A DNA stretch of 64,000 nt from an uncultured Chloroflexia bacterium (lineage in GTDB: Bacteria; Chloroflexota; Limnocylindria; Limnocylindrales; CSP1-4). The notes under the pieces are model-generated. The model did no database searches. It had not been told where the DNA came from and saw only the letters and a list, made by a program, of their open reading frames with translations. Of the stretch, positions 23,258-47,780 are shown piece after piece (position 1 is the stretch's first letter; every line of letters begins with the position of its first letter). Made by a program: the position numbers and the translations under genes. Where the stretch lies: contig CAVUSH010000003.1 in NCBI GenBank assembly GCA_963744095.1, positions 625,334 to 689,333 of the forward strand. The letters are read 5' to 3'.

Positions 23258-26230
23258 ATGCGCAGGGAGCCGGCAGACACGCGCCGGGGCGGGCCGACCA
23301 CGGGCGGTGCCGCAGCGGGGATCATCCCCGCCAAAGTGCGCGCGCCGCGGGTTCGCTGGCTCGCCCGGGAGCGCCTGGACCAGCTGGTCCCCCGGCTCTG
23401 GCAGCATCGCCTGACGCTGGTCGTCGCCCCCGCCGGCTCGGGGAAGACGACCCTGCTGGCGGCCTGGGCCGGCCTGGCCGACGCCCCGGCAGCCTGGTAT
23501 CGCGCGGAGAGCGTCGACGGATCCGAGCGGAGCCTCGTGGCGCACCTCGCCGCGGCATTCGCCGCGGTCATGCCGGATGTCGAGCCGGCCTGGCGATCCG
23601 TGGACGAGGCGGCCGCCGCTCTGGACAGGCGCGCCGAAGCCCGCCTGCTCCTGGTCATCGACGACCTCCACGCCCTGACCGGGACGCCTGCCGAGGCCGC
23701 GCTCGAGCGATTCCTCGACTTCGCGCCCCCCATGCTGGCGGTCGTCGCGGGCACCCGCGTGGCCCCGTCCTTCAACCTGTCCCGCCGCCGCGTCACCGGG
23801 GAGATCCTGGAGCTCTCCGGCGACGACCTCCGCTTCCGGCCGTGGGAGGTGGAGCGCCTCTTCCGCGACTTCTACGGCGACGCGCTCCACCCCGACGAGC
23901 TTGCCCGCCTCGCCCGCCGGACCGAGGGCTGGGCTGCGGGCCTCCAGCTCTTCCACCTCGCCACGCGGGGCAAGGCGGCCGCAGAGCGGCAGCGACTGCT
24001 CGCCGGCCTCGGCCCCAGCTCACGGCTCATGCGCGAGTACCTCGCCCGCAACGTGGTGGGGGAGCTCCCCGACGACCTGCGCGAGTTCCTCGTCGGGACG
24101 TGTGTCCTCCGCCGCCTGACCGGGAGCCTCTGCGACCGACTCCTCCAACGTCACGGCAGCCGAGCGCTCCTCGAGGAGCTCGAACGGCGCAGCGTCTTCA
24201 CGGTCGCCATCGACGACGAGGGCACGTATCGCTACCACGAGGTCCTCCGCAGCCACCTCGAAGGGATGCTCGTCGAGGCGGTCGGGGAGGCGAGCGCGCG
24301 CGCCCGCGCCCGTCGCGGCGGCGAGCTCCTCGAGGGCGACGGGGCGATCGCGGAGGCCGTCGCGGCCTACAGCCGGGCCGAGGACTGGGCCGCCGTCGAT
24401 CGGCTGCTTGACCGACACGGCGAACACCTGGCGGCGGGCCAGGGCACCTGGATGGACACGCTCCCCCCAGCGCTCCTGGTCCAGGATCCGTGGCTCACCC
24501 TTGCCACGGCACGTCGCCACCGAGCCGAAGGGCGGTGGGTCCAGGCGGTCGACGCATATGGGAGGGCCGAGGCGCTCTTCGGCTCGGGGGATGCGGGGGC
24601 CGCGTGCCGCCGTGAGCGGCTGGCGGTGGCCGGGTGGCTGGATCCCCTGCCGCCACCGGCCTCAGACTGGACCGGCGCCCTCCGTTCCGCGGTGGCCCGC
24701 GATCCCCTTGTCCGGCGGCCGGCCGGCGACGACGAGCCGGGCAGGCTCGTGGCGGCAGGCCTCGGCGCCCTTGTCGGCGGGCGGGTCGCAGAGGCGCGCG
24801 GGATCCTCCGTCGTGCCCTGGACGAGGAAGCCGGCGGCCTCGTGATCGGCCTGGCTGCCGCCCTCGGCGGAGGCGTTGCCGGGCTCCTCGCCGGCGATCC
24901 GCGGGCCGTCATCGAGACGGAGCAGGCCGTCGCGACGGCCGAGCGCGCGGGCCTCGGCTGGCTTGCCCGCGTGGGTCGGGCAGCCCTCTCGATGTCGGGC
25001 GCGCCTGCGGGAGCGGAGTATGCCCGCTCGGACGCGACCGCTGTCCGCGAAGCCGCCGCCCACGACGAGGATCGCTGGGGGGAGGGCCTCGCGGCGCTCG
25101 CCGAGGGCTGGGCCGCGATGCGCGAGCCCGAGGCGGCGCTGGAACCGCTCGAGGCAGCCACGGCCCGCTTCCGCGCCCTTGGGGCGGGAAGCCTCGAGGC
25201 CTGGGCCCGCGCACTGACGGCGCTGGCGCTGGCCCGGGCAGGTGCGCCCGAGGCCCGGGAGGCGGCCCGCTCTGCCGAGGGGGTCGGGCGCTCGACGGGC
25301 ATCGCGGTCGTGGCGGCCGTCGCCCAACGGGCCCTGGCGGAGCTCGACCCGTTCGCGAACGGTGAGCTCGGGTTGGCCGCCGACGGCATCCTCGCCGAGG
25401 CGGGCGTCGCCCTGCCCGCGGGCGGCCGATCCGTCTCGGCACGCGAGGACGCCGACGGATGGCCCGCCGCGGCGGGGTCGGCCGGAGCCGGGTCGACTGC
25501 GGCGGGGTCGGTGCAGGTTCGCCTCTTCGGGTCGTTCGCGATGACCGTCGAGGGACGGCCCGTCGATCTCATCGGGTTGAAGCCCCGCCCTCGCGCCGTC
25601 CTTCGCTTCCTCGCCCTCAACGCGCGACGTCCCGTCCATCGCGAGGTCCTCCAGGAGACGTTCTGGCCGGAAGTGGACCCCGAGACCGGCGCGAGGAGCC
25701 TCCACGTAGCCCTGTCCGCATTGCGTCGTGAGCTGACGCCGCGCGCCGGGCGAGGCGCCAGCGAGCTGCTGGTGCGCGACGGGGATGCCTATCGGCTCGC
25801 CCTGCCCGACGATGCCCGGATCGACCTCGTCGACTTCGAGCGGGCCGTCCTCGAGGCGCGGACCGTCCGGGCTCGCGGGGCCACCCAGGTCGCGATCGCG
25901 GCGTTCCGGTTCGCGATCTCCGCGTACGGCGGCGACCTCCTGCCCGAGGATGGACCGGCGGAGTGGGCGGCGGTCCGCCGCGAGCGCGCGCGGGCCGAGG
26001 CCGTGGAGGCGACCCAGGCGCTCGCCGAGCTGCTGCTCGACGGCGATCCGGCGGGGGCGGCCGAGGCCTGCGCGGCCGGCTTGGCCCTCGATTCGCATCA
26101 CGACCCGTTCTGGCGGCTCCTCGCGGACGCGCGCGAGCGGGCGGGCGACCAGGCGGCCGCCACCAGCGCGCGGTCGGGCTACGCGCGCATGCTCGCCGAG
26201 CTCGGGGTCATGGCGGTCGACGACGCCTGA
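23258..26230 (+). CDS. MalT-like STAND NTPase regulator with C-terminal winged-HTH/BTAD (SARP-type) module
   Basis: APAGSGKTT, LVIDDLH, TEGWAAGL, YRYH, helical TPR-like region, VRLFGSF, FWPE, LHVALSALRR, YGGDLLPED. Confidence 0.88.
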   Translation: MRREPADTRRGGPTTGGAAAGIIPAKVRAPRVRWLARERLDQLVPRLWQHRLTLVVAPAGSGKTTLLAAWAGLADAPAAWYRAESVDGSERSLVAHLAAAFAAVMPDVEPAWRSVDEAAAALDRRAEARLLLVIDDLHALTGTPAEAALERFLDFAPPMLAVVAGTRVAPSFNLSRRRVTGEILELSGDDLRFRPWEVERLFRDFYGDALHPDELARLARRTEGWAAGLQLFHLATRGKAAAERQRLLAGLGPSSRLMREYLARNVVGELPDDLREFLVGTCVLRRLTGSLCDRLLQRHGSRALLEELERRSVFTVAIDDEGTYRYHEVLRSHLEGMLVEAVGEASARARARRGGELLEGDGAIAEAVAAYSRAEDWAAVDRLLDRHGEHLAAGQGTWMDTLPPALLVQDPWLTLATARRHRAEGRWVQAVDAYGRAEALFGSGDAGAACRRERLAVAGWLDPLPPPASDWTGALRSAVARDPLVRRPAGDDEPGRLVAAGLGALVGGRVAEARGILRRALDEEAGGLVIGLAAALGGGVAGLLAGDPRAVIETEQAVATAERAGLGWLARVGRAALSMSGAPAGAEYARSDATAVREAAAHDEDRWGEGLAALAEGWAAMREPEAALEPLEAATARFRALGAGSLEAWARALTALALARAGAPEAREAARSAEGVGRSTGIAVVAAVAQRALAELDPFANGELGLAADGILAEAGVALPAGGRSVSAREDADGWPAAAGSAGAGSTAAGSVQVRLFGSFAMTVEGRPVDLIGLKPRPRAVLRFLALNARRPVHREVLQETFWPEVDPETGARSLHVALSALRRELTPRAGRGASELLVRDGDAYRLALPDDARIDLVDFERAVLEARTVRARGATQVAIAAFRFAISAYGGDLLPEDGPAEWAAVRRERARAEAVEATQALAELLLDGDPAGAAEACAAGLALDSHHDPFWRLLADARERAGDQAAATSARSGYARMLAELGVMAVDDA

Positions 26231-26267
26231 CGGACCAGGGTGCCGGCGTCGGAGACGACGCGGTCGG

Positions 26268-28615
26268 TCAGGGTGCCGGCGTCGACGATGACCCGGCCTG
26301 CGAGCCGAAGAACTCCACCTCGGAGAGGGCGACCGGCGCGTTCGGCTTCTCGGCGGGGTAGACGGACCGGATCGTGAGGCGGACACGAGAAGCATCCGTC
26401 GCCCCGACGTCGAACGGCTGGGGCTCGGCCTGGTCCTTGAGCTCATAGCTCTTCGAGGCGATGACCGTGCCAGCCGGGTCGAGGAACTCGAAGGTGACGT
26501 CGCGCGGGCGGGCGAACGCCTTGTACTTGTCTCCTGACGCGCCGGAGGTCACCAGGATCTTCGCCACGGCTGCGGGGGGCGTGAATGCGCCCTCGATGGC
26601 CGGCGGGGACCCGTCGGCGAACGGCGCGGCCCAGAAAGCGAGGGTGCGGTCGAAGGCGAGCCGGGCTGGATTCTCCTTGGTCCCGGGACCGGTCGTCGGG
26701 CCGGAGGTGTAGACGGGGTCCGCCGACGGGACGACCACGTCCTTGGCCGAGTTGATGAACCCATTCACGGCGTCGCGCCAGCTCGGGACCAGCGCGTACC
26801 CCGCCACGAGGCCGACCATCCCGGCGAGGACGACGACCTGGAACCCTACCGAGAAGACCCGGCCGGGCTTGATCGTGCCGCCGGTCCTGCCGTCGGTGCG
26901 CATGCTCTTCGGCCGCTCACCCGCGGCGATCTTCGCCCTGGGCTTGCCGCCACCGAAGATCCGGCGATACCAGGGAACCCTGGAGAGCGCCGCGACGGTG
27001 GCCGTCGCGAGGCTCTGACCACAGCGGCGGCAGAACTTGCGTGCCGGATCGTTCCCGATGCCGCAGTTGCCGCAGACGAGGTCGCCGGGGTTGGGAGCCG
27101 GCGTGGCTTCCTGCGCCGGGCGGGGCCCGGGGCGCGGCCGTTCAGGGCCGGGCTTGACCGCCTCCGGGCGGCGTGCCGCCGGCTGGTCCGGGGGCTGGGT
27201 CGGCGCGGGGGTGGCCGGCGCCACGGGAGTCGAAGGGGACCCAGCGGTCGCGGACGTGCCCGCCGCCGCGGCGACGGCGGGTGCGCTGGGCAGGCGGGCA
27301 GGCGGCTGGGCCGGCCCGGGTCGCTGGGCCGGAGGCTGGGCCGGCGGGGCCGCGGTCGACGCGAGAGTCGGGGGTGCCGCGGCGGCCGGCGGAGGTGTCG
27401 GCAGCTCGGCAGCGACCGCCGCAGCCTCGTGCGGAGGCTCGACGGGCCTGGCTGGCTGGACGAGCGAGCGCGGCTTCGTGGTCGCTGGGGCTCCCGGCAG
27501 CATCGGGCGGATCCGGGCTTCCTTGGCCGCGGGAGGCGACGGCACGGCAGGCTCACCTACCGGCCCAGCTGTCGCGCTGCCGGGCGCGGCGGGAAGACGC
27601 TCCCCGCAGGAAACGCAGAAGACGCGTCCCGCCGGGTTCACGCGGCCGCAGGCCGGGCAGGTTGGCCCTTCAGGCAACGCATCAAGCTGCGGCGGGAGGG
27701 CCGCATCGGAGGCGGGCTCCGGGACCAGCGCGGGGGCGGGGGCGGGTTCGGGCTCGGGGGCGGGCGCGGGTTCGGGCTCTGGCGCGGGCTCTGGCGCGGG
27801 CTCCGGCTCGGATGCGGGGGCGGCTTCGGGTGCGGCCGCGGGGGCGGGTTCGGGGACGGCAGGCTCCGGCTCGGGGGCGGAGGCAGGTTCGGGGACGGGT
27901 GCTGGGGCGGGTTTGGGTTCGGGGACGGGTTCGGGCTCTGGCGCGGGCTCGGGCGCGGGCTCCGGCTCGGGCACGGGGGCAGGCTCGGGCTCCGGCTCGG
28001 GCGCGGCGGCGGGCCCGGGGGCGGGTCCTGCGATGATCCCCGCCGCCGACTCCGGCTCGGGCGCGGGCGTGGGGCAGGTTCGGGCTCCGGCTCGGGGGCG
28101 GGGGCAGGTTCGGGGGCAAGTTCGGGTTCGGGTGCGCCCGGCTCCGACTCCGGCTCGGGCGCGGGCGCCGGGGCGGGTTCGGGGACGGCGGGCTCCGGCT
28201 CGGGCTCCGGCTCGGGGGCCGGGGTTGGCTCCGGCGTGTCGTCGACGATGCGGAAGACCTTCGGGCCGCTGACGACGACAGGCACAGGCTCGGCCTGCGT
28301 GGCGGCCGTGGCAGTGTCGGCGGCGGCCTCCGCGTCGTGAAGGGCTGCCGGCTCGGCGGCCGCGGCCACCGCGGCCTCCTCGGCATTCGCGGCAGGTCCG
28401 GCCTCAGGGCCGCCCAGGCCGACGGCATCGCGGACGCGGCCGATGAATCCCGGCTGCTCCAGCGCAACGGGCGCCTCGGGCGCGACGCGCTCCGGCTCCG
28501 GCACGGGCCCGGGCTCCTCGACCCTGGTCCCGGTCCACTCGAGGAAGCTCCCACACGAGCCACAGAAGCTGTCCGACGAGTCGTTCTGGAGCCCGCACTT
28601 CGTGCAGACGATCAC
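26268..28615 (-). CDS. CisA-like CIS membrane adaptor 1: zinc ribbons, Pro/Glu linker, TM, NADase-type/discoidin-like glycan-binding domain (frameshift at 28071-28074)
   Basis: Three CxxC..N..FCxxC ribbons, single TM, C-terminal ARPRD...LKD..EPQ...RLTIRSVY...ALSEVEFF. Last gene of the baseplate operon. Confidence 0.8.
27720..28232. repeat. Low-complexity EPEPAP-encoding repeats
   Basis: Degenerate 6/12/18-bp periodicity (ggctcg/ggttcg/ggcgcg). Confidence 0.8.
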
Positions 28616-28729: not shown

Positions 28730-29269
28730 TCACGCCTTGACGATCTCGACCCGGTGTTGGACGTGCGCCGGCTTCGACGCCCCGACGAGCGCCTCGAGCC
28801 GAGCCGCCGGGACGGCCTTCGGGTCCTTCACGCGGACGCGGATGAAGAGGTCCGTCGAGGAGCCCGCCGGAATGGCGGCACCGGCGTCGCGCGACCAGCC
28901 CGCCGCGCCGGGTTCGGCGATCTCGACCTCGCCACCCGTGAAGATGGCCACGTGCGCCGCCAGCCCGGCGGCTGTACCGCGCATCCGGAACAGCTCCGTG
29001 GCGGACGCGACGAACGCCCTGCGCCGTTCGAGCGGCCACGTCTCGTCCGGCGTCGCACCGACCCAGCTCCCGATCCATTCCAGGAAGTCCTCGGGGGCGA
29101 GGGCCGGGTCCAGGTAGGCCGGGAAGCAGTCGAGCACCTGGATTGCCCCGGCCAGGACCTCATCGAACGCCGACGTGAACTGCTGGGTGAAGGCATCGTC
29201 CCGGTAGAGACCGGGGAGATGCTCGCCGATCGGGTGAGGGCTCGCGAGCCCGGGCGGCGTCCCGCGCAC
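28730..29269 (-). CDS. Phage tail protein I-like baseplate wedge subunit
   Basis: LPGLYRDD.F, YLDP..AP.DFL.W, RGT..GL, KPAH. Confidence 0.88.
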   Translation of the reverse strand: MRGTPPGLASPHPIGEHLPGLYRDDAFTQQFTSAFDEVLAGAIQVLDCFPAYLDPALAPEDFLEWIGSWVGATPDETWPLERRRAFVASATELFRMRGTAAGLAAHVAIFTGGEVEIAEPGAAGWSRDAGAAIPAGSSTDLFIRVRVKDPKAVPAARLEALVGASKPAHVQHRVEIVKA

Positions 29270-29271
29270 GG

Positions 29272-31221
29272 TCAGTCCTCCTCGACCATGAGCTGGTGCT
29301 CGTAGCTGAAGACGAGCGCATGGGGCTCCAGGTCGAGGCGCTGTGTTGCCTGGCCCCGCTGCCCTGTGATCGGGTCGGCCCCGAAGAGGCGCACATCCTC
29401 GACCAGCTCGGTCCCCCGCACCCGCTGGAGCACCGAGTAGACCTCGCCGATCTGCACCGGTCGCCCAAATGGCCACCCGGCGCCCTCCGGACCGCCGCTG
29501 ATCGGGTTGAAGTAGGCATACAGTGCTCGCAGGGCGTCCTCCTGGAGGCGACCCGCGGTCACTCGCGGCCGCCTCCGCAGGCGGGCGACGATCGTGATCC
29601 CACGGTAAACCGGCGGCTCGACGATCACCCGCGTCCCAACGACACGCGTCTCATCGAGGCGAGCGGCCACGCGGGCCAGCGTCTCGTCCGACGGGACAAG
29701 CTGCTCGAAGCGAAGGCGCGCATCGACGGCCTGCGCCGCGGGCACCACGAGGACGCGCACGGATCCCGCGTCGGCACCCTCGCCAGCCCCCACGGCGTGG
29801 ACGCGCGCCAGCTCGGGCGCCGCCTCGTGGGAAAGGTGCTCGAAGTCCTCCGTGGTGACGGCGCGCCCGCGGGAACGGAGCGTGATGGGGCCGCGGACCT
29901 TCGCGTTCTCGATCTCCTCCCCGTCGACGCCGCCTGCCATCGGCCGGCGGTTCTCCACGCGGCTCACGTACGGGATGGACGACTTCAGGATGCTGATCGA
30001 CCGCGGCGCGATGTTGCCGAGCCGGCCACCGCCCGTGAGGTAGACGTCGACCTTGATCCGGCGTCCCTTCCCGGGCACCGCCCCGTGGCTCCGCACCGCC
30101 CCGTCCGCCTCGCGGACGGCCGGGCCGAAGGAGATCTCGCCGGCGACGGCATCGAGCACGAAATGCCGATCGTCGGGCCCCGAGCCGGAGAAGTCGGGCA
30201 CCTGCGTCCACTCCAGCCAGCCGTCCTCGTCGTCCGAGACCTGCACGCCGGTGGGCCGATCGCCGGGGACCACCGGTCGTCGTCGCAGGAGGAAGCGCTG
30301 GCCGGCCACGCCCTCGGAGGTGCCGACGATCTCGTCGACGACCACGTCGGCGTGGACGGCGGCGGTCGTGCCACCAACGGTGGAGGCGGCCACGCCGCGC
30401 ACGCTCGGGGATGCGGAGTAGAACGGCTGGCCTTCCTCCGGCGCCGTGACGCGGGCGCGGAGCCACGCGGCGCGGAGCTTCTCGACGACCGAGACCGCGT
30501 GGCCGTTCGGGACGTGGAGGATCACCTCGCCGTCCCGGTTGAGGCCGCCGGTGGCGTCGCGCTCCAGCTCGCAGGGCGTCCAGGCGTCGCCGGTCCAGGC
30601 CTCCCACGCCAAGGGCGGCCAGGTGGGATCGACGCCGACGCCTTCGATCGTGCATCGAAAGTCGAGGCGAACGACGTTGGCGGGCGCCGGCTCGGAGATG
30701 CCGACGAGCAGCAGGTTGCCCGCCACCGGCGGCGCCTCGAAGGCGGCGAAGTCGCGCCCGTTCGTGGCCTCCGTGGTGCGGTCCACGTGCTTCTTGCCAT
30801 CCGGGGTGGTCAGCACGTGGGCGAGCGTCACCGGGACGATCGGGAGGTCGTCGAGCGTCGTGAAGACGACCGCGTCGTCGGTCTCGGTGCGAATCGTCGC
30901 CGCCTGCGTCCCCCCGGCGATGCGGATGGCGTCCGGTTGCGCCGCGGAGAGCCAGAACGTGATCTCGCCGCGGGCCGCCGCCGGCGGGAACAGGCGGACG
31001 CCGATCAGCTCGAGGAACTTGACGTAGTGGCGGTCGGGGACCCGGTTGAGGCGGTACAGGAGCTGGTCGGTCATCCAGGCGAAGGCCTCGATGAGGGTGA
31101 CGCCGGGGTCCGAGACGTTGTGGTCCGTCCACTCCGGGCAGCGCTGCTGGACGAGGCGCTTCGCGTCGTCGACGAGGTCCTGGAAGCGGCGGTCGTCCAG
31201 GTTCGGGACCGGCAGGGCCAT
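29272..31221 (-). CDS. Baseplate J-like assembly protein (Afp11/12-like)
   Basis: MALPVPNLDDRRFQDL, WTDHN.SDPGVTLIE, GG.D.E, RAVT.EDFE, GWPFGR. Confidence 0.92.
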   Translation of the reverse strand: MALPVPNLDDRRFQDLVDDAKRLVQQRCPEWTDHNVSDPGVTLIEAFAWMTDQLLYRLNRVPDRHYVKFLELIGVRLFPPAAARGEITFWLSAAQPDAIRIAGGTQAATIRTETDDAVVFTTLDDLPIVPVTLAHVLTTPDGKKHVDRTTEATNGRDFAAFEAPPVAGNLLLVGISEPAPANVVRLDFRCTIEGVGVDPTWPPLAWEAWTGDAWTPCELERDATGGLNRDGEVILHVPNGHAVSVVEKLRAAWLRARVTAPEEGQPFYSASPSVRGVAASTVGGTTAAVHADVVVDEIVGTSEGVAGQRFLLRRRPVVPGDRPTGVQVSDDEDGWLEWTQVPDFSGSGPDDRHFVLDAVAGEISFGPAVREADGAVRSHGAVPGKGRRIKVDVYLTGGGRLGNIAPRSISILKSSIPYVSRVENRRPMAGGVDGEEIENAKVRGPITLRSRGRAVTTEDFEHLSHEAAPELARVHAVGAGEGADAGSVRVLVVPAAQAVDARLRFEQLVPSDETLARVAARLDETRVVGTRVIVEPPVYRGITIVARLRRRPRVTAGRLQEDALRALYAYFNPISGGPEGAGWPFGRPVQIGEVYSVLQRVRGTELVEDVRLFGADPITGQRGQATQRLDLEPHALVFSYEHQLMVEED

Positions 31222-31224
31222 CGG

Positions 31225-31626
31225 TCAGTCCTCCGCGGGGATCACGTAGAAGGGGAAGACAAGGTTCCGGGGGTCGTTCGACGACCCGACCGTGTAGCGG
31301 ATGTCGATGTAGAGCGTCGAGGCGTCGTCCTCGTCGGGGGCCACGTCGACCTCCTGCACGGCAATGCGGGGCTCCCAGCGGCGCAACGAGGCGCGCACGT
31401 CGGCGGCGATCCGGCCGAACGTCGCGGCATTGGCCGGCGAGAAGACCTCGTCGTGGATCCCGCACCCGAACTCCGGCCGCATGGGCCGCTCGCCGTAGGC
31501 CGTGCCGAGGACCAGGCGGATGCTCTCCTCGATCTCCCGCTCGCGGGTGACCAGGGCGATCCCGCCCGTCGCGTCGGTACGCAGGGGGAAGGCCCACCCG
31601 GCGCCGATGAACTCGTCGTTGACCAT
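31225..31626 (-). CDS. gp25/GpW baseplate protein (Afp9-like)
   Basis: IG.GW.FP, L.T..GERPMRPEFG, WEPRI, NLVFPFY. Confidence 0.93.
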   Translation of the reverse strand: MVNDEFIGAGWAFPLRTDATGGIALVTREREIEESIRLVLGTAYGERPMRPEFGCGIHDEVFSPANAATFGRIAADVRASLRRWEPRIAVQEVDVAPDEDDASTLYIDIRYTVGSSNDPRNLVFPFYVIPAED

Positions 31627-31643
31627 CGGGTCGTCCTCCTCGC

Positions 31644-33419: not shown

Positions 33420-33422
33420 CCC

Positions 33423-39520: not shown

Positions 39521-39570
39521 CCCTCCGGCGGCTTGCCCGCGCGGACGCCCCCGGGGACGCTGGGCGGGCG

Positions 39571-40314
39571 ATGATCCAGGACGTCGACGAGACCCTGCGC
39601 GCGCTCGTCAAGCGCGAAGCCCTCAACGGGAGCCAGGTCGAGATCGCCTTCGACGCCCCGACCCGTGACTGGTCGGCGCGGCGCAATGCGCCAACGATCA
39701 ACCTCTACCTCTACGACATTCGCGAGGACATGACCCGACGCGACGCGGCCATGGCCCCGGTCCGCTCCGATGAGGGGTACGTTGCCGGCCACTCCCCCAT
39801 CCCCCGTCGCTACAAGCTGTCGTACCTCCTGACGGCCTGGACGCAGCGCCCCGAGGACGAGCACCGCCTCCTGGCGGCCTGCCTGGGCGCACTCATCCGG
39901 TACGACGTCCTGGCCCCGGCGGACATGCACGGCGCCCTCGCCGAGCAGCCGATCCCCGCCCTCGTGACCGTCGCCCTCCCGCTCGGGCCGGACCGCTCCA
40001 TCGCGGACATCTGGTCGGCGATGGGCGGCGAGATGAAGCCGTCGCTCGACGTCGTCGTCACGGTCCCGTTCGTGGTGAGTCGGGAGGTGGCGGCCGGCGC
40101 GCCGGTGCGCGAGATGCCGCGCATCTCGATCCTGGGACCCGACGGCGCGGACGGCCCGCGGATCACCCGGGCTCGGGTACGGCGAGGCCCGTCGGGGGCC
40201 CGCACCGGGCCGCTCCGCCCCGACGAGCCCATCGCCCAGGACGAGACGGTCGTCGGCGGCACGCCGGAGATTCCAGGCCGCCTGTTCCGGGTGCGCGGCC
40301 ACCCGCGTCCCTGA
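39571..40314 (+). CDS. CIS cap/terminator protein (Pvc16/Afp16, DUF4255-like)
   Basis: FDAP, NLYLYDIRED, LSYLLTAW, EH.LL, W.A.G...KPSL. Confidence 0.88.
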   Translation: MIQDVDETLRALVKREALNGSQVEIAFDAPTRDWSARRNAPTINLYLYDIREDMTRRDAAMAPVRSDEGYVAGHSPIPRRYKLSYLLTAWTQRPEDEHRLLAACLGALIRYDVLAPADMHGALAEQPIPALVTVALPLGPDRSIADIWSAMGGEMKPSLDVVVTVPFVVSREVAAGAPVREMPRISILGPDGADGPRITRARVRRGPSGARTGPLRPDEPIAQDETVVGGTPEIPGRLFRVRGHPRP

Positions 40315-40320
40315 CCTTCG

Positions 40321-42414
40321 ATGGTTCTCGCCGTCCCCACCGACGCGTCGGCTCGCCACCTTGCCGGCCGCCTGGGCCTCGTGGCCGACCGCGTCCAGCT
40401 CGCCGTGGACCGGCGGCGGATGGGCGACCCGGACCCGGACGACCAATTCCGCGGCCTTTACGTCTCCGACGCCCAGGTCGACCACCTGCTCGGCGGGGGG
40501 CACGGGCCGCTCCTGCTAGCGGACGCCGACGGCGCAGCGGCGGAGCGCCGCGCGGCGGTCGAGGCCAGGGCGGACGCCGCAGAGGCGGCCGGCGAGGAGG
40601 TGCGGCTGCGCCGGCTGGCGCGCAGCTTCGCCCTGGAATCCCTCGACGTGGAGCTCCTTCTCGTGGCCCTGGCGCCCGATCTCGACCCCCGGTTCGAGCG
40701 CCTCTATGGCTACCTCCACGACGATGTCTCGCGGCGACGGGCGAGCGTCGGTCTCGCCCTCGAGCTGTCCGGCGTAGGCGAGGGGTCCGGGACCGGTCGG
40801 GCCCGGCTCGGCCCGCTCGCTCCGCTGGTTGCGGGTGGGCTCCTCGTGGTGGAGGACGGCGACCGACCCTTCCTGACCCGCGCCCTGCGCGTTCCCGACC
40901 GCGTCGCGGCCCACCTGCTGGGTGACGCAGCGCCCGACCCCGCGGTGGAGGCCCTCGCCACGATCGCCGCAGCCCACGACGCGGCCGGGACCGACGCGCT
41001 CGAGGGCGGCCTGCGCGCTGGTGCCCGCCTCGCCTACGTGCGGGAGCGGATCGGCACCGCCGCGGTGACGCTCGCCGCGCGCGCGCTCGGACGCGTGGGG
41101 CCTCCGCCGGTGGTGGTGGACCTCGGACGGCTCGTCCCGGGCGATGATCCCCGCGAGGCCGCGGCCGCGGCGATCCGGGAGGCGCGGCTCCGCGGGACCG
41201 GCCTCGTGGCCGGACCCCTCGACGTCGTCGCGGAACGCGGGCCGGGGGCCGTCCGCGCCTGGGCGGAGGCGGCCTGCCCGGTCGTCCTCCACGGGTCGCG
41301 CGGCTGGGACCCCGGCTGGTCGCGGTCGGTGCCGTTCATCCTGGACCCGGACCTCCCGTCCGCCGCCGAGCGGCGGGCCGTCTGGCTGGCCTCGCTGGAC
41401 GGAGCCGCGTCGGCGGACCTGGGGGCAGCCGTGGCCGCGCTTCCCTTCCGCCTTGCCCCCGAGGCCGTCGCCCGTGCCGCCGAGGCCGGTCGCCTTGCCG
41501 CCGCGGCGGCGGGCCGCGACCTGGGCGTGAGGGACATCGCCGCGGGCGCCCGGGCCCAGAACGCGGCCGGCCTGGAGCGCCTGGCCCGGCGCCTCGAGCC
41601 GCGGGTCACCTGGACCGACCTGGTCCTTCCGTCCGGCGTCCTGGAGCAGCTTCGCGAGCTGACCGGCCGGGCCCGCCATCGCGACCTGGTCCTCGACGAA
41701 TGGGGCCTGGCCCGGACGTCGCTCAAGGGCCGCGGGGTCACGGCCCTCTTCGCCGGCGACTCCGGGACGGGCAAGACCATGTCAGCCGAGGTCATCGCGG
41801 GCTCTCTCGGGCTCGACCTGTACGTCATCGACCTCTCCACGATCGTCGACAAGTACATCGGCGAGACGGAGAAGAATCTCGACCGCGTCTTCACCGAGGC
41901 CGACCGGGTGAACGGCGTCCTCCTCTTCGACGAGGCTGACGCGATCTTCGGCAAGCGCTCGGAGGTCAAGGACGCCCGGGATCGCTACGCCAACGTGGAG
42001 GTCGCCTACCTCCTCCAGCGGATGGAGCAGTTCGACGGGATGGCGATCCTCACGACGAACCTGCGGGCAAACGTCGACGAGGCGTTCCTTCGCCGGCTCG
42101 ACGCCATTGTCGACTTCCCCCTTCCGGAGATCGACGACCGACGCCGCCTCTGGGAGCGCAACCTCGCGGCCGGCGCCCCGAAGGCGGATGACATCGACGT
42201 GGACTTCCTGGCCCGCCGCTTCGCGCTCTCGGGGGGCAACATCCGCAACGTCGCCGTCGGAGCGGCATTCCTCGCCGCCGAGGCGGGGCGGTCGCTGAAC
42301 ATGGAGCATCTCGTCCGGGAGACCGCCCGCGAGTACCGCAAGCTGGGGCGCCTGTGCGTCGAGGCCGAGTTCGGGCCGTACTTCCCGCTGGTTGCGAACG
42401 TGGCCGGAGGCTGA
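40321..42414 (+). CDS. CIS AAA+ ATPase (Afp15/Pvc15-like)
   Basis: LYGYLHDD N-domain, GDSGTGKT, KYIGETEKNL, FDEAD, DRYAN.E..YLLQR.E. Confidence 0.93.
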   Translation: MVLAVPTDASARHLAGRLGLVADRVQLAVDRRRMGDPDPDDQFRGLYVSDAQVDHLLGGGHGPLLLADADGAAAERRAAVEARADAAEAAGEEVRLRRLARSFALESLDVELLLVALAPDLDPRFERLYGYLHDDVSRRRASVGLALELSGVGEGSGTGRARLGPLAPLVAGGLLVVEDGDRPFLTRALRVPDRVAAHLLGDAAPDPAVEALATIAAAHDAAGTDALEGGLRAGARLAYVRERIGTAAVTLAARALGRVGPPPVVVDLGRLVPGDDPREAAAAAIREARLRGTGLVAGPLDVVAERGPGAVRAWAEAACPVVLHGSRGWDPGWSRSVPFILDPDLPSAAERRAVWLASLDGAASADLGAAVAALPFRLAPEAVARAAEAGRLAAAAAGRDLGVRDIAAGARAQNAAGLERLARRLEPRVTWTDLVLPSGVLEQLRELTGRARHRDLVLDEWGLARTSLKGRGVTALFAGDSGTGKTMSAEVIAGSLGLDLYVIDLSTIVDKYIGETEKNLDRVFTEADRVNGVLLFDEADAIFGKRSEVKDARDRYANVEVAYLLQRMEQFDGMAILTTNLRANVDEAFLRRLDAIVDFPLPEIDDRRRLWERNLAAGAPKADDIDVDFLARRFALSGGNIRNVAVGAAFLAAEAGRSLNMEHLVRETAREYRKLGRLCVEAEFGPYFPLVANVAGG

Positions 42415-42415
42415 G

Positions 42416-44917
42416 GTGCCGCGTCGCTATCTCCCCCGCCGCCGGCTCGACGAGAGCTTCGAGTCTGAGCTCACGCCGACCGGGACCAGCGCACCCGTCC
42501 TGACCGACGAGCGGGCCAGCGCTCGACTCACCGAGCTGCTCATCACCAGGGGTCCGGAGAGCCGGAACGGCAAGGGCACGGCGGTTCCACCGACCTCTGT
42601 GGCCCGGCTCCAGCGCCTGGCCGGGAACCGGGCGGTCGCCGATCGACTCGGGGGAAACGGCGGGACGGTGCAGCGGTCCCGAAACCGGGCCTCCGACGAA
42701 GAGGAGTCCATCCCGGAGCCCGCCCAGGCGGGGCCGGTCGAGGCGGCTCCCGGGGCCGAGGCCGAGGCCGCGCCGCCCGCCCAGGCGGGGCCGGTCGAGG
42801 CGGCTCCCGAGGCCGGGGCCGGGGTCGCGCCGCCCGCCCAGGCGGGGCCGGTCGAGGCGGCTCCCGAGGCCGGGGCCGGGGTCGCGCCGCCCGCCCAGGC
42901 GGGGCCGGTCGAGGCGGCTCCCGAGGCCGGGGCCGGGGTCGCGCCGCCCGCCCAGGCGGGGCCGGTCGAGGCGGCTCCCGAGGCCGGGGCCGGGGTCGCG
43001 CCGCCCGCCCAGGCGGGGCCGGTCGAGGCGGCTCCCGAGGCCGGGGCCGGGGTCGCGCCGCCCGCCCAGGCGGGGCCGGTCGAGGCGGCTCCCGAGGCCG
43101 GGGCCGGGGCCGCGCCGCCCGCCCAGGCGGGCCAGCTGCCCGAAGCCGCCGCGGCACCGAATGCCGATGAGGCGGCCAAGGCGGGGATCGTCGAATCGGC
43201 CGGGAAGGCGGCCGGCGCCAAGGACGAACCCACCGGCCTCGACAAGCTGGTTCAGGAACGCGTCGCCCCGATCGGCGGTGAGGGCGGCCGGGTACTGCCC
43301 GAGGCGGAGGTCGCCGGTGAGGGCGGCCGGGTCCTGCCCGACGCGGAGATCGCCGGCGAGAAAGGCCGGGTCCTGCCCGACGCGGAGATCGAGGCCAGGC
43401 CCGGCCCCGCCGGGCCCGAGGGAGGCCGGGTCTTGCCCGGGGCGGAGGTCGCCGGCGAGGGAGGCCGGGTCCTGCCCGACGCGGAGATCGAGGCCAAGCC
43501 CGGCCCCACCGGGCCCGAGGGCGGATCGAACGTGCCGGTGGAGGCACCGGCTCCGGCCGGCGCGGGCGGTCCCGGCAGCGCAGCCCCTGCGACCGACGTC
43601 CCCGCCACCCCGGCGCCGGAACCGGGCGGCCCGGAGTCGGCCGGCCCGGAGTCGTCGGAGCCATCCGGAGTAGCGCCCGCGCCGGTCGTGGAGCCAGCCG
43701 AGGAAGAGCCGCTGCCGGCCGGCGACCAAGTGCAGATCGCCACCATGAATGTCGCCGGAGCCAACGCCGTCGTCACCGCCGCCAAGGCGACGACAGGGGC
43801 GCAGAAGCTGTCCGCGGTCGCGGTCTCGTTGGCCGCGGCGGGGTTCGCGAACGCGCTGCGGCTGACGTTGAGTCGGGCCATCCCGTGGCGCACCAAGATC
43901 CTCGGCATTGCCCCGAAGGTGGTCGGCAGGGCAACGCGGATGCTGACGGGCCTCCGCACGAATGCGAGCAAGGCGATCCAGGGCATCGTGCTCAAGGTGA
44001 AGTCGGTTGCCGATGCGGCCAAGGGCGTCATCGCCTGGGCGCGCCAGGCCGTCGGGCTCGCCCGCGCCGCCGCGCGGGGGATCGGCAGCAAGCTCCGCTC
44101 GGCCCTGGGCGGGGCAGGCGAAGCGGTCTTGAAGCTCCTCTCGGGACTCCTCGATCCTGCCCGCAAGGCGCTCGGGGGGCTCCTCAAGGCCGGATCCGAG
44201 ATCCTGCTCGACGGGATCAGGCGGGTCCGGGCCAACGCGGCCAGCGCCGTCGCCTTCGTGGCGGAAGAGGTGGGCACGCGACTCGCGGCCGCCCTCGCCA
44301 TGGTGGTGGACCTCGTCCGCGCGGTCGTGAAGGCCGCGCTGGAGCAGGCGCGCCGGGCAATGGCCGTGATCATCGAGAAGGTCGGGGCGATCCGCGCCCA
44401 GCTCCTGGCCGTGACGATCCTCGCCCGGTCGATGCTCGCTGCCGCCCGGTCGCAGGCCCTCCAGGGGACGACCGCGGCCCTGGCGGCCATCGCAGTTGCG
44501 ATCGCCAACGGGTATGCCCAGCTCCGGTCCGGTGGCGGACGGAGGGCCTTCCGCCGGTTCGCCAAGATGTGGCGCGGCTTCATCCGGACGATACGGTCGC
44601 GCACCAAGAGCCGGCTGGCGTCGGGGCTGGCTTCCGTGAAGCTCTACGACCGAGCCGGAACGGCGGCGGTCGGGGCCGCGCGGGCCGAGGCCCGGGCCAA
44701 CTACGGGGCGACGCGGGCGTCGCTCACGAACCTGGAGACGACCGCGGCGATCGAGGCAGCCGAGCTCGGTCTGTCGGTCGGCGTTGCCGCCGCGGTGGCA
44801 GCGGGCGCCATCGACGCCGCGGTGACGGAGGGAGAGACGCTCATTCGCGAGATCGCCGGCGAGGGCGATGGCGATGCCCGCGAGCTCCAGGGGCTCATCA
44901 ACCGGGTCGGCAAGTGA
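42416..44917 (+). CDS. Candidate CIS cargo / tape-measure-related protein
   Basis: LQRLAGNRAV...VQR motif, two repeat arrays, long Ala-rich amphipathic helical C-terminal half. Confidence 0.65.
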   Translation: MPRRYLPRRRLDESFESELTPTGTSAPVLTDERASARLTELLITRGPESRNGKGTAVPPTSVARLQRLAGNRAVADRLGGNGGTVQRSRNRASDEEESIPEPAQAGPVEAAPGAEAEAAPPAQAGPVEAAPEAGAGVAPPAQAGPVEAAPEAGAGVAPPAQAGPVEAAPEAGAGVAPPAQAGPVEAAPEAGAGVAPPAQAGPVEAAPEAGAGVAPPAQAGPVEAAPEAGAGAAPPAQAGQLPEAAAAPNADEAAKAGIVESAGKAAGAKDEPTGLDKLVQERVAPIGGEGGRVLPEAEVAGEGGRVLPDAEIAGEKGRVLPDAEIEARPGPAGPEGGRVLPGAEVAGEGGRVLPDAEIEAKPGPTGPEGGSNVPVEAPAPAGAGGPGSAAPATDVPATPAPEPGGPESAGPESSEPSGVAPAPVVEPAEEEPLPAGDQVQIATMNVAGANAVVTAAKATTGAQKLSAVAVSLAAAGFANALRLTLSRAIPWRTKILGIAPKVVGRATRMLTGLRTNASKAIQGIVLKVKSVADAAKGVIAWARQAVGLARAAARGIGSKLRSALGGAGEAVLKLLSGLLDPARKALGGLLKAGSEILLDGIRRVRANAASAVAFVAEEVGTRLAAALAMVVDLVRAVVKAALEQARRAMAVIIEKVGAIRAQLLAVTILARSMLAAARSQALQGTTAALAAIAVAIANGYAQLRSGGGRRAFRRFAKMWRGFIRTIRSRTKSRLASGLASVKLYDRAGTAAVGAARAEARANYGATRASLTNLETTAAIEAAELGLSVGVAAAVAAGAIDAAVTEGETLIREIAGEGDGDARELQGLINRVGK
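42719..43132 (+). repeat. 57-bp tandem repeat (PAQAGPVEAAPEAGAGVAP), 7 copies plus a partial
   Basis: Five identical central units and two variants. Confidence 0.92.
43277..43523 (+). repeat. 39-bp-based repeat (GEGGRVLPxAExA), 5 copies with inserts
   Basis: Visible in both DNA and translation. Confidence 0.8.
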
Positions 44918-44933
44918 CGAGGTGGAACGAGCG

Positions 44934-45998
44934 ATGAACGAGGAACCCGGCTGGCTGCGGAGCGAGGCCGCGGCGCGGTCCAGGGAGACCGAGCTCGACG
45001 GCGGCACGAAGAAGCCGGCGGGCAGGGGCGCAGGCCGCGAGCAGGATCGCGGCCTGGCGGCGGAGGCGTCGCGCGCGCTCGCTGCCGGTCAACCAGAGAA
45101 GCTGCGGCCCGGCGCGGTGATGCACCTCCAGAGAGCCGCCGGGAACGCAGGCGTCGCGCGCTTCCTGGGCGAGGAGCGCGAGCCCGAATCTCCGGTCAAG
45201 GGGATCGTGGGCCGTGGCGCCGGCGCCCCCCTCGACGACGCGTCTCGCGCGCGCATGGAAGCCAGCTTCGGCACCGACTTCTCGGATGTTCGTGTCCATA
45301 CCGGCAGCTCCGCGGCCGAGTCGGCCCGGGCGGTGGACGCCCACGCCTACACCGTCGGGAACGAGGTCGTCCTGGGCGACGGGCAGGCGCCGGGTTCGCC
45401 GGCATACGAGCGGACGCTGGCCCACGAGCTGATGCACGTCGTCCAGCAACGGTCGGGTCCGGTGGACGGAACGCCCGCCGGAGGCGGCATCAGCGTCTCC
45501 GATCCCGCGGACCGCTTCGAGCGGGCGGCGGAGGCCACGGCGGACGACGTCGTGAGCACCGGGCGCGCGCCCGAGGCCTCCACGGGGAACGTCTCCAGCA
45601 CATCCGTGCAGCGCGAACGACCGTTGGAGGAGGAGGAGCGCGACCCGACCGAGGCGGACACCCTGCCGTCGATGGCGGAGACGGCGACGGCCGAGACGGC
45701 CCAGGCGGGGGCGAAGACACCGGCGACGGCCGAGACGGCCCAGGCCGGTGCCGCCGAGGGCGCCGTGGTCGAGGGGCAGCCGAACCGCGAGCCGACCTCG
45801 GCCCCCGAGGCCGAGTCCACGGCCGGGACCGCCCAGGCCGGCCCGATCGAGGCTGCGCCAGGCGAGGAGGAGCAGGAAGAGGTCCAGGAGCTTGCGATCC
45901 AGCGCCAGGAGGCGCCCGAAGAGGACGAAGAGGTCCAGGAGCTCGCGATCCAGCGTCTCCAGCGCGGTGACGACCTGAGCGGCGCGCGCATTGCCTAG
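44934..45998 (+). CDS. DUF4157 (eCIS core domain) protein
   Basis: LQRAAGNAGV, G.PLD...R..ME..FG.DFSDVRVH, A.AYTVG, LAHELMHVVQQ, D.FE..A, acidic tail with QR repeats. Confidence 0.9.
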   Translation: MNEEPGWLRSEAAARSRETELDGGTKKPAGRGAGREQDRGLAAEASRALAAGQPEKLRPGAVMHLQRAAGNAGVARFLGEEREPESPVKGIVGRGAGAPLDDASRARMEASFGTDFSDVRVHTGSSAAESARAVDAHAYTVGNEVVLGDGQAPGSPAYERTLAHELMHVVQQRSGPVDGTPAGGGISVSDPADRFERAAEATADDVVSTGRAPEASTGNVSSTSVQRERPLEEEERDPTEADTLPSMAETATAETAQAGAKTPATAETAQAGAAEGAVVEGQPNREPTSAPEAESTAGTAQAGPIEAAPGEEEQEEVQELAIQRQEAPEEDEEVQELAIQRLQRGDDLSGARIA

Positions 45999-46037
45999 GA
46001 CGTTCCGAGGTCATCCTCGTACGAGGCTCGACTGCCC

Positions 46038-46958
46038 ATGAGCCTGGTTCACGACCGTGACGTCGACGCCGCCCTGCCGGGCCACGGCCCAGCCGTCGAC
46101 CGCGGTCCGGGGCCGCTCCGCCCGATCGACCCTGGTCCCGCGGGACCCGGCAGCGCGCCGGTCGCAGGCGCGATCGACGGGGTTCCTGCCGCCTGGACGG
46201 CGGCGCTCGCGGGCGGGCGTCGGGGCGGTCATCCGGTCGTCCGGGGCTCCGTGACCCGGCTCCAGGCGGCGGCCGGCAACTCGGCCGTTGCCGACCTGCT
46301 GACCTCGACGGCGGGCGACTCCCGCGCGACGCGGCGCGCGGGTCCGACGCTCCGTCACGCGGGCGAGGCCGACCTGCTCGGGACCGATCCGGGCGCCGCC
46401 TCGCTCGGAACCGGCGAGGCAGCCCCGCTCGACGAGCCCGGGCAGAGTCCCGCCACCCCCGCTCCAACCACGTCCTTCACGAAGGTCGGCCCGCCAACCA
46501 AGTCCGGCTACACGGTCTCGGGGACCCTCCGCAAGGCGGCCGAGGCGGTGGCGGCGCGCCCGGAGGCCGGGGCCACCATCACGACCCCGGATCTCGTCTC
46601 AGCCGGCAATGGCACGCGCATGACCCAGGCCCAGGTGACCGTGACCCAGGTCGTCGAGCTCCCCGACTGGGACGGCAAGGCCTCGGCGACGCAGAACCAG
46701 CGGACGGAATGGGACCGCTTCAAGGCCGCCATCACGGCCCACGAGGACGGCCACGTCGCGACGGACGTCACGGCGTTCGCCGGTGCCCATACGAAGATCC
46801 TGGCCAAGAAGACGACCGCCGAGTCGAACACGGAGTACGACACGATCGTGACCGGGGCCGACACGGCCAACGCGACCTTCGACACGAAGACCGACCACGG
46901 CCGCAATGCCGGCACGACCATCAACCCGAACATCGACGAGGTGACGAAGGTCCCCTGA
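46038..46958 (+). CDS. Candidate CIS effector with DUF922-like zinc-protease domain
   Basis: LQAAAGNSAV N-terminal motif, LPDW...WDRF......HEDGH (HExxH), D..T.HG. Confidence 0.7.
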   Translation: MSLVHDRDVDAALPGHGPAVDRGPGPLRPIDPGPAGPGSAPVAGAIDGVPAAWTAALAGGRRGGHPVVRGSVTRLQAAAGNSAVADLLTSTAGDSRATRRAGPTLRHAGEADLLGTDPGAASLGTGEAAPLDEPGQSPATPAPTTSFTKVGPPTKSGYTVSGTLRKAAEAVAARPEAGATITTPDLVSAGNGTRMTQAQVTVTQVVELPDWDGKASATQNQRTEWDRFKAAITAHEDGHVATDVTAFAGAHTKILAKKTTAESNTEYDTIVTGADTANATFDTKTDHGRNAGTTINPNIDEVTKVP

Positions 46959-47003: not shown

Positions 47004-47669
47004 CTAGATCAGCCCCTGGCGGATCGCGTAGGCCACCGCGTGCGTCCGGTTGCGGAGGTCGAGGCGCGACGTGATGTCATGGATCACGTTCTTCACGGTC
47101 CGTTCCGAGAAGAAGAGGCTGTGCCCGACCTCGGCGGTGTCGAGCCCGTCGGCGAGAAGCCGCAGGACCGCCACCTCGCGCTCCGTGAGGCCTGCAAAGG
47201 TGAGGCCGCGGGGGTGCAGCACCTGCCGCTGCAGGCGACCGACCTGGGAGAGGAGCCGGCCAAGGAGGTCCGGCGGGAGCGTCCCCTCGCCGACAGCGGC
47301 AGCCCCGATCGCCGACGCGAGCTGGGCGGGCGTCGCCTGGCTGCGGCGGACGACCCCGCTCACGCCGGCCTCGACGGCCGCGAGAAGCCCGGCATCGTCC
47401 ACCTTCGCCACGAGGAGCACCACGTGCTCCTGGCCCGTGGCGCGGATCGTCCGGATCTCCCGCGTCGTGGCCTCGTCGACCTCGTCCGCCACGACCACGA
47501 CGACGCCGGCCGCTCCCGGCGCGACGGCGTCCACGACCTCCATCGTGGGCTGGTCGTGGAGCTGGGCGGCGAGCCCCGCCCGGGAGAGCGGATCGGTCGT
47601 CGCGATCGCGACCGCGAGACGTTCGAGCGGGAGGCTGCGCAGGGCGTGGACGGCGACGGACGACGTCAT
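47004..47669 (-). CDS. LuxR/NarL-family regulator with atypical receiver domain
   Basis: GLTERE..VLRLLADG, SERTVKN, LRNRTHAVAYA. The receiver lacks the canonical DD pair. Confidence 0.9.
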   Translation of the reverse strand: MTSSVAVHALRSLPLERLAVAIATTDPLSRAGLAAQLHDQPTMEVVDAVAPGAAGVVVVVADEVDEATTREIRTIRATGQEHVVLLVAKVDDAGLLAAVEAGVSGVVRRSQATPAQLASAIGAAAVGEGTLPPDLLGRLLSQVGRLQRQVLHPRGLTFAGLTEREVAVLRLLADGLDTAEVGHSLFFSERTVKNVIHDITSRLDLRNRTHAVAYAIRQGLI

Positions 47670-47734: not shown

Positions 47735-47764
47735 ACCTAACGGGCACCTAACGCCCACCTAACG
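47735..47764 (-). promoter_or_regulatory. Three direct ACCTAACG repeats in 11-bp phase (SARP/BTAD-type site) upstream of luxR
   Basis: Copies start at 47735, 47746 and 47757. Minus-strand CATGCT -10-like hexamer at 47720-47725. Confidence 0.7.
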
Positions 47765-47766
47765 GG

Positions 47767-47780
47767 CGCCCGATCGGGCA
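47767..47780. promoter_or_regulatory. 14-bp palindromic box cgcccgatcgggca
   Basis: Matches the boxes at 39463-39520. Confidence 0.55.

Follow-up and report, generated by a model that had tools for sequence, protein, structure and literature searches.

Activators of the SARP (Streptomyces antibiotic regulatory protein) family bind repeats spaced 11 or 22 bp apart, the 3' repeat being separated from the -10 element by 8 bp, and one of them, AfsR, contacts the first 8 bp of each 11, according to the accessible text of PMC10936776 and PMC11301090. The closest described case to the one treated here is the pimaricin circuit of Streptomyces natalensis. There, in the available part of PMC3367932, the SARP-LAL protein PimR binds three heptamers with 4-bp spacers in the promoter of pimM, and PimM, a PAS-LuxR protein, activates the cluster. 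For contractile injection systems (CIS), the accessible portions of PMC8505568, PMC10020575 and PMC10286715 name bldA, SigE and SCO4263/SlpR in regulation and give neither an upstream sensor nor DNA sites. Among extracellular CIS (eCIS) loci, GerE adjoins 25.8%, and BTAD is a shell domain described as a possible regulator, in the text available from PMC8213781; a BTAD gene also stands in a STRING network with phage-tail genes in the accessible part of PMC13102240. Here we analyze a CIS locus in a 64,000-nt stretch of DNA (the window) from an uncultured Chloroflexia bacterium of GTDB lineage CSP1-4 (assembly GCA_963744095.1, contig CAVUSH010000003.1, positions 625,334 to 689,333 of the forward strand). 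All feature positions below are those of the window.

The CIS genes lie between two regulatory genes. One encodes a 990-aa protein (23258..26230, plus strand; Pfam AAA_22, Trans_reg_C, and BTAD) that combines a signal transduction ATPase of the STAND class with a SARP module; the other, luxR (47004..47669, minus strand), encodes a 221-aa protein of the NarL/VraR type with a GerE helix-turn-helix (HTH) domain and an atypical receiver (Pfam GerE; NCBIfam NarL-type models). An earlier note on this stretch, made from the letters and translations, had placed a winged-helix-turn-helix (wHTH) and BTAD regulator at the far end of the locus from luxR, with the CIS genes between, and the Pfam assignments agree. 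It had also proposed a cascade in which a ligand-sensing STAND protein activates an atypical LuxR, which in turn switches on the CIS. A two-step switch running from STAND-SARP to LuxR to CIS is the best available reading of the sequence evidence assembled here, and we hold it to be rather probable.

Phased repeats in the luxR promoter

The window holds exactly three exact copies of ACCTAACG on the plus strand, at 47735-47742, 47746-47753, and 47757-47764, with a period of 11 bp. On the minus strand, which is that of luxR, the array (47735..47764) reads CGTTAGGT-GGG-CGTTAGGT-GCC-CGTTAGGT, giving 8-bp units with 3-bp spacers. It is followed on its 3' side by the 9 nt CCCCCCTCG (47734-47726) and then by CATGCT (47725-47720, minus strand), a weak -10-like hexamer that matches TATAAT at three of six positions and at whose offset 24 of 36 repeat-bearing loci carry nAnnnT. 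There is no -35-like hexamer 17 nt upstream of CATGCT, the sequence at that position being GGTGCC. The array overlaps this -35 position and is our proposed site for the SARP module.

Identical 8-mer triples occur once in the window at a period of 11 bp and nowhere at periods of 9, 10, 12, or 13, and none was seen at these periods in 200 first-order Markov random sequences. In the whole assembly (3.21 Mb in nine contigs, 84.6% complete), the luxR site was the sole match to the two-unit pattern when up to two mismatches were allowed. It also ranked first by three-unit consensus score, with 21; the runner-up score of 18 was reached at four places among about 6.4 million positions. The array is thereby confirmed as real and far from chance. 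Its coordinates and sequence agree with those of the earlier note, which had seen three exact repeats at an 11-bp period ending 9 nt before a -10-like hexamer facing luxR. The note's account of SARP sites as direct repeats at an 11-bp period abutting the -10 likewise holds, since the published rule, as far as the accessible text gives it (a period of 11 and about 8 bp to the -10), is matched here.

Within the genus, luxR orthologs were found in 15 of 24 other genomes at 76-93% identity. By eye, all of the genus luxR upstream regions carry phased CGTTA-type units with nAnnnT 9 nt later, the third unit having decayed to CGGAAGCG in the more distant members. A LuxR-alignment search of all species representatives returned 66 loci (loci and genomes are cited below by our L and G numbers). 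The weak Leuconostoc match L114 was left out, 65 loci were scanned, and 3 without upstream sequence were dropped, so that 62 were scored for three CGTT(A/G)AGT units at a period of 11 within 375 nt around the luxR start. A score of at least 16, the threshold, was reached in 36 of the 62, compared with a background of one score of 17 and 23 scores of 16 at 2.08 million other positions in the same loci. These 36 loci come from Chloroflexota, Dormibacterota, Actinomycetota (Streptomycetaceae, Acidimicrobiia, Thermoleophilia, and unclassified metagenome-assembled genomes [MAGs]), and one MAG labelled Acidobacteriota. Counted by eye, with the register moved by one unit for four loci, nAnnnT stands exactly 9 nt past the third unit in 24 of these 36 loci; in another 2 the distance is 8 nt. 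The non-coding sequence around the repeats showed no conservation or alignability between phyla. On these comparative grounds, the repeats are an old promoter element.

Two of the loci call for separate mention. L063, from the MAG labelled Acidobacteriota, and L066, labelled Actinomycetes, have identical LuxR proteins and near-identical loci, which points to a binning or labelling problem or to a very recent transfer.

Two other 11-bp arrays were encountered in the same genome. The first lies about 16 kb past the end of the window (G000:C3:705740-705840) and consists of three exact copies of GGGTGAGTGCC with degenerate copies upstream, and it ends up some 60-100 nt ahead of a plus-strand gene's ATG, where the sequence is apparently non-coding; one of the two other BTAD proteins of the genome, or a different winged-helix regulator, may bind there. 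The second, at G000:C6 ~802240-802300, has at least four 11-bp units of ACTGCAC(G/C)CCG on the plus strand and is among the runner-up scores of the genome scan. It falls in a stop-to-stop frame (802196-803281, plus strand), and its coding status depends on where that open reading frame (ORF) starts.

The STAND-SARP regulator and its distribution

The regulator consists of a MalT-type nucleotide-binding oligomerization domain (NOD) ATPase at about residues 22-430, a helical middle region for which there was no Pfam match, and a C-terminal wHTH plus BTAD module at residues 746-990. Its translation contains the Walker motifs GSGKTT (A) and LLLVIDD (B). Structure 8BOB, that of E. coli MalT, aligns over residues 22-335 (E 1.5e-28), and residues 22-430 match the NCBIfam MalT model (E 6.9e-50) with 169.9 bits, far under that model's equivalog cutoff of 537. 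For the C-terminal module, the Pfam scores are 28.4 bits for Trans_reg_C (cutoff, 26.2) and 35.6 bits for BTAD (cutoff, 22.1). A profile built from 27 such modules gave full-module matches to EmbR (E 3.7e-22) and to the SARP domain of AfsR (E 5.3e-10). The AlphaFold2 (AF2) model of the module has a pLDDT of 90.6, and a Foldseek search with it returned AfsR in transcription initiation complexes (8K60 and 8HVR; TM 0.77) and EmbR (TM ~0.79), with AfsR and EmbR matches ranging from 0.77 to 0.80. Pfam, the profile, and Foldseek thus agree on an OmpR-type wHTH directly followed by BTAD, as expected of a SARP. Given the MalT NOD alignments and the complete SARP module, we therefore describe the regulator as a MalT-type STAND protein with a C-terminal SARP output.

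The position of this module is not the N-terminal one of SARPs, as it occupies residues 746-990 of 990, after the ATPase. In the accessible part of PMC10972967, all SARP classes (small, medium, large, and SARP-LAL) carry the module at the N terminus. The predicted ATPase-first, SARP-last order is thus not among the classes given there, and it is the reverse of that in AfsR. At the residue level, hidden Markov model (HMM) alignment shows that the AfsR contact residues W74, P79, S91, and R94 are kept, whereas K95 and Q48 are each replaced by R. W74, S91, R94, and K95 are DNA-backbone contacts in the available text of PMC10936776. In the one Streptomyces relative that we examined, from S. tritici (L116), the protein has 535 aa and comprises the ATPase and the SARP module without about 470 residues of the middle region; therefore, the sensing part differs between lineages. 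The earlier note had described STAND proteins as often being danger sensors. That idea found no support here: the ATPase belongs to the MalT type, and MalT of E. coli is a metabolite sensor.

The gene for the regulator has a probable promoter, TGGACC-17 nt-CAGAAT (23173..23201, plus strand), which is conserved upstream of the genus orthologs and matches the consensus at 8 of 12 positions by eye; a promoter scan of 23050-23300 with a threshold of 9/12 reported nothing. From its sequence, this promoter looks ordinary and activator independent, in keeping with constitutive production of a sensor whose switching is post-translational.

Relatives of the regulator that carry the wHTH-BTAD module turned up for 35 of the 36 loci with repeats, as against 2 of the 26 without them. 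Of the 35, 8 were in the 10-kb flank, 11 came from a genome search, 12 came from a second genome search, and 4 were coordinate matched to genus genomes. One of the relatives associated with repeat-less loci (L107) is 38% identical and lies 3.8 Mb from luxR. The earlier note had held that orthologous loci keeping the regulator without the repeats would speak against its cascade. The cascade withstands that check: loci that keep the regulator have the repeats, and for 24 of the 26 repeat-less loci no relative was found. In the genus, the regulator accompanies luxR in each of the 15 genomes that have the latter, at a distance of about 20 kb on one contig wherever the contigs show this. Among the genus genomes without luxR, eight of nine hold only N-terminal paralogs at 33-38% identity, the exception being G010.

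Gene order varies among these loci. In seven of them (L062, L063, L066, L068, L071, L080, and L081), the regulator gene shares the strand of luxR and stops shortly upstream of it, and the repeats lie in the short space between the two; the regulator's stop codon is a few bases from the repeats, and the 427-aa gene that is divergent from luxR in the window lies elsewhere. Therefore, the repeats follow luxR. In six Streptomycetaceae genomes, a regulator match lies 24-33 kb from luxR, and in S. tritici, the sole genome of this kind examined, the regulator adjoins the Baseplate_J end of the CIS cluster. The repeat-less loci include Pseudonocardiaceae, Micromonospora-type, and two Streptomycetaceae CIS loci (L067 and L095), and because of the latter two, both states exist within one family. 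A candidate covariation between the recognition helix (LHVALS or LQVAVS) and the fifth base of the repeat was set aside, as by eye the Dormibacterota locus L062 has the H together with CGTTGACC.

If the repeats are a genuine activator site of luxR that the regulator does not bind, the next candidate is some other winged-helix protein, either a PhoP-like OmpR/PhoB regulator or a SARP paralog encoded elsewhere, with STAND-SARP regulating something else. Regulators of the OmpR/PhoB type also bind 11-bp-phased repeats that replace the -35, and AfsR and PhoP overlap at afsS, in the accessible text of PMC10936776. By the positions given in the same text, the upstream AfsR repeat reads C-n-TTCAGC, which is close to the CGTTCAGT and CGTTGAGT units seen here. 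The genome also has two other ORFs with a BTAD domain, and STAND-SARP does not keep the base-contacting residues of AfsR. However, a scan of 52 ORFs in the window turned up no further OmpR-type wHTH protein or response regulator and no kinase, and in seven loci the regulator's stop codon all but touches the repeats. The repeats are also gone where no STAND-SARP turned up, whereas a general regulator of the PhoP kind should still be present there, and a single site in the whole genome does not look like a global regulon. We consider binding by such a protein unlikely.

LuxR, a conserved palindrome, and the proposed circuit

LuxR matches GerE with 49.8 bits (Pfam) and aligns end to end with VraR and ChrA; with a receiver domain and a C-terminal GerE HTH, it belongs to the NarL/FixJ group. 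In the alignment to VraR, the DD pair is replaced by T/A, the Thr by V, and the Lys by R, and only the Asp acceptor position is kept. The phospho-acceptor pocket is therefore not intact, and the description of this LuxR as atypical in the earlier note was apt. Because the receiver is without a phosphorylation pocket, the activity of LuxR is probably set by its amount, and such control probably fits a transcriptional cascade. The HTH of LuxR is invariant in 16 genus orthologs.

When one mismatch was allowed, TGCCC-N4-GGGCA occurred at five sites in the window: two in ORFs (4388 and 51537) and three (23183, 39485, and 47767) in the three regulatory gaps of the locus, namely, the regulator promoter, the sheath/Pvc16 gap, and the luxR gap. 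The genome total is 213 in 3.21 Mb, and by our own arithmetic about 0.03 would be expected in the roughly 0.5 kb of regulatory gaps. The copy TGCCCGATCAGGCA (39485-39498) is 105 nt upstream of the sheath start. The copy CGCCCGATCGGGCA (TGCCCGATCGGGCG on the minus strand; 47767..47780) adjoins the repeats and could be a LuxR box common to the divergent promoters of luxR and the gene starting at 47838. Among loci that are not of the Micromonospora type, 22 of 25 have the palindrome (up to one mismatch) upstream of the sheath gene, compared with a background of 0.042 per 260 nt, and in 21 of these 22 it lies 105-130 nt from the start. Of the 25, seven have neither the regulator nor the repeats, and five of these seven carry the palindrome upstream of the sheath; of the seven Micromonospora-type loci, none does. 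We propose TGCCC-N4-GGGCA as a candidate LuxR box. Because the two distributions differ, the palindrome tracks LuxR and the repeats track STAND-SARP, which is the pattern that a two-tier circuit predicts.

The palindrome was also considered as a fourth repeat unit and rejected, as by eye the distance between its CCCGAT and the first unit is 12 nt instead of 11. The palindrome-like sequence in the spacer of the regulator promoter, TGCCCGGAGGGGCC (23183-23196), is kept in the nearest relatives (L019-L028) and not in more distant genus members. It could, speculatively, mean feedback by LuxR.

The circuit that we propose would work as follows. The regulator would be expressed from its own, apparently ordinary promoter. 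A signal would switch on the ATPase and sensor part, and the SARP modules would then bind side by side on the three 11-bp-phased CGTTAGGT units, which occupy the -35 position of a luxR promoter that has no -35 element of its own. Bound in this way, they would recruit RNA polymerase at luxR, as AfsR does at afsS. A LuxR dimer would then bind TGCCC-N4-GGGCA about 105-130 nt upstream of the sheath operon, as well as the copy in the gap that luxR shares with the divergent 427-aa gene; in this way it would switch on the CIS operons and perhaps boost its own expression. Since the genome has no second site like that of the luxR promoter, only one target is predicted for the regulator.

A number of observations weigh against this circuit. 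A consensus promoter scan of 47600-47900 found no complete sigma-70 promoter, and 10 Streptomycetaceae loci have TTCACT at the 9-nt offset, in which the second position is not the usual A. The regulator has V and A in place of T88 and R92, which contact bases in AfsR, and by eye there is no clean covariation between recognition helix and repeat sequence. The palindrome lies upstream of luxR itself in only 22 of 62 loci. As for co-occurrence, one repeat locus (L060, a 4.4-kb contig of a fragmented MAG) yielded no regulator relative, and for L078 (Nitriliruptorales), where the repeat score of 15 is ambiguous, there is a relative that is 48% identical. The second genome search used a stricter first pass, so that its negatives are a floor. 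The regulator gene is split over two frames in G001, G002, G008, and G054 (loci L023, L042, L044, and L043), and the upstream regions of the first three of these genomes still show phased CGTTA-type units, all three of them exact in G001; the splits may be assembly errors (long-read indels) or pseudogenes, or they may mean that the repeats do not need the regulator. Finally, on a LuxR tree of 48 rows, from which rows with fewer than 150 matched residues were left out, the repeat label and the regulator label need three changes each. A paired-contrast sign test on this tree had two to three independent pairs, too few for significance, and much of the co-occurrence could reflect common ancestry within a single CIS lineage. 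The two-step switch is compatible with the co-distribution, but the latter is not statistically independent evidence, since it amounts to about three events.

Taken further, the last point becomes an explanation in its own right: the repeats and the regulator would be unrelated features of one CIS lineage, and the repeats would serve the 427-aa gene or the repression of luxR. The roughly three label changes on the LuxR tree give too few independent contrasts to test this, and in the window the repeats do sit in a gap shared with the divergent gene. Set against it, where gene order differs it is luxR, not the 427-aa gene, that the repeats accompany, and their distance to the nAnnnT that faces luxR is fixed at 9 nt in two-thirds of the repeat loci (24 of 36). 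Moreover, the non-coding surroundings are not conserved between phyla, and the absence of a -35 element points to activation and not to repression. Phylogenetic inertia of this sort strikes us as improbable.

Autoregulation is common among cluster-situated regulators, and GerE/NarL-type domains usually bind inverted repeats as dimers. Binding of the direct repeats by LuxR itself, with STAND-SARP acting elsewhere or indirectly, would suit the constant position of the repeats just 5' of luxR and the highly conserved LuxR HTH, but we give it little credence, because luxR relatives without STAND-SARP have no repeats yet keep the sheath palindrome, an inverted repeat with the right distribution for a LuxR-type domain exists here, and within the genus the LuxR HTH does not change, whereas the repeats differ in sequence (TAGGT, TATGT, TAAGT) and their third unit degenerates.

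The STAND-SARP to LuxR to CIS switch thus gains, relative to the cascade of the earlier note, the observed co-distribution of repeats and regulator, the conservation and geometry of the site, and the SARP fold; its binding and activation steps and its signal we infer, and the co-distribution reflects about three evolutionary events. For the LuxR-to-CIS step, what is added is the conserved palindrome upstream of the sheath gene, the remainder being analogy. A broader and more tentative proposal is that an NLR-like, MalT-type STAND protein with a C-terminal SARP module, sensing an intracellular ligand, is the ancestral single-target master switch of cytoplasmic (Streptomyces-type) CIS in at least four phyla; we offer this as a possibility with the odds somewhat against it.

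For the question of what triggers Streptomyces-type cytoplasmic CIS, this locus and its relatives provide a single promoter element whose conservation reaches from Chloroflexota to Streptomyces, a candidate sensor with an ATPase and a middle region that could help in searching for the inducing signal, and a candidate LuxR operator before the sheath operon. If the master-switch proposal is correct, the sensor would, through the luxR promoter alone, commit the cell to building an apparatus that has a link to regulated cell death in Streptomyces, and the CGTTnAGT repeats together with the palindrome would make the circuit readable and predictable from sequence in uncultured bacteria.

The locus and its relation to known systems

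The CIS gene content comprises, by Pfam, sheath, tube, baseplate, spike, Pvc16-like, AAA+ ATPase, and DUF4157 genes in two divergent operons. At the baseplate end, next to the regulator, are zinc-ribbon proteins (26268..28615, minus strand; Pfam DZR and Zn_Ribbon_1). The structural operon follows (28730..39380, minus strand), with Tail_P2_I, Baseplate_J, gp25, a VgrG-like spike, CIS_tube, tube proteins, a 732-aa ORF, and the sheath gene (37863-39380, minus strand). A divergent promoter region between sheath and Pvc16 (39381..39570), which holds TGCCCGATCAGGCA, separates it from the second operon (39571..46958, plus strand). The latter encodes Pvc16_N, the start of which was read from the sequence, the AAA+ ATPase, an 841-aa ORF, eCIS_core (DUF4157), and a DUF922 protein. 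In this Chloroflexota MAG, the sheath, the ATPase, and the regulators are 55-70% identical to their counterparts in Streptomyces loci; therefore, this type of CIS and its regulatory module are common to several phyla. Judged from its genes, the system appears to be a Streptomyces-type (class IId-like) CIS, a subclass label derived from the literature.

For luxR, the conserved ATG at 47669 is more likely the start than 47684, given ortholog conservation. The divergent 427-aa gene (47825..49121, plus strand; ATG at 47838) is conserved, has no Pfam or NCBIfam family, and has homologs adjoining luxR in most of the related loci. TACACT lies 7 nt before its ATG, an arrangement kept across the genus, and its promoter looks leaderless. 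Elsewhere in the window are a GGDEF diguanylate cyclase 12 kb upstream of the locus (9814-11418) and, just 3' of the 427-aa gene, a further double-zinc-ribbon protein (51215-52483) that resembles those at 26268-28615.

Among regulators already tied to CIS, SCO4263/SlpR of Streptomyces coelicolor and S. lividans is a LuxR-family gene at the edge of the CIS cluster that is needed for particle production, in the accessible text of PMC8505568 and PMC10286715. At 3756 nt (4675583-4679338; supplement of PMC4895711), it is far larger than the gene for the 221-aa LuxR described here. Therefore, we do not equate the two, and SCO4263 was set aside as a direct ortholog. S. coelicolor transcription start site (TSS) tables give a start for SCO4264, and the TSS file has none for SCO4263. 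In the CIS and SARP literature, to the extent that its text is accessible and subscription-only papers excepted, we found no link from BTAD to LuxR, no binding site, and no palindrome.

The domain layout has parallels in two proteins. Like MalT of Escherichia coli and the LAL proteins, the regulator has an ATPase, a helical sensor region, and a C-terminal DNA-binding domain, but its output is wHTH-BTAD (SARP), whereas that of MalT is a LuxR/GerE HTH. Like AfsR of Streptomyces coelicolor (SARP-NOD-TPR), it combines a SARP module, a STAND ATPase, and a helical region. The geometry also matches: at afsS, as given in the available parts of PMC10936776 and PMC11301090, AfsR contacts 8 bp of each 11-bp repeat, and these repeats overlap a poor -35 and lie about 8 bp from a weak -10 (CACTGT). 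The differences from AfsR are that the domain order is reversed, the ATPase is of the MalT and not the NB-ARC type, T88 and R92 are not kept, and the regulator is proposed to be cluster situated with a single target, whereas AfsR is global.

The likeness to PimR is that of the circuit. In the pimaricin case, and as proposed here, a large ATP-binding regulator with a SARP module has as its single target three repeats before a cluster-situated LuxR-family gene (for PimR, in the accessible text of PMC3367932 and PMC10972967). The target here is a CIS instead of a polyketide cluster, and the SARP module is C terminal instead of N terminal. The repeats here overlap the -35, 9 nt from the -10, whereas the PimR site is 55 nt upstream of the -35; the unit is CGTTAGGT, and that of PimR is CGGCAAG. 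The LuxR here is of a pseudo-receiver type, whereas PimM is of the PAS type. A SARP-type activator that feeds a LuxR-type regulator was thus already known. What is new is its use for a CIS, its reach across phyla, and the order of a MalT-type NOD followed by a C-terminal SARP module, which together would extend SARP-type promoter logic beyond antibiotic clusters and beyond Actinomycetota.

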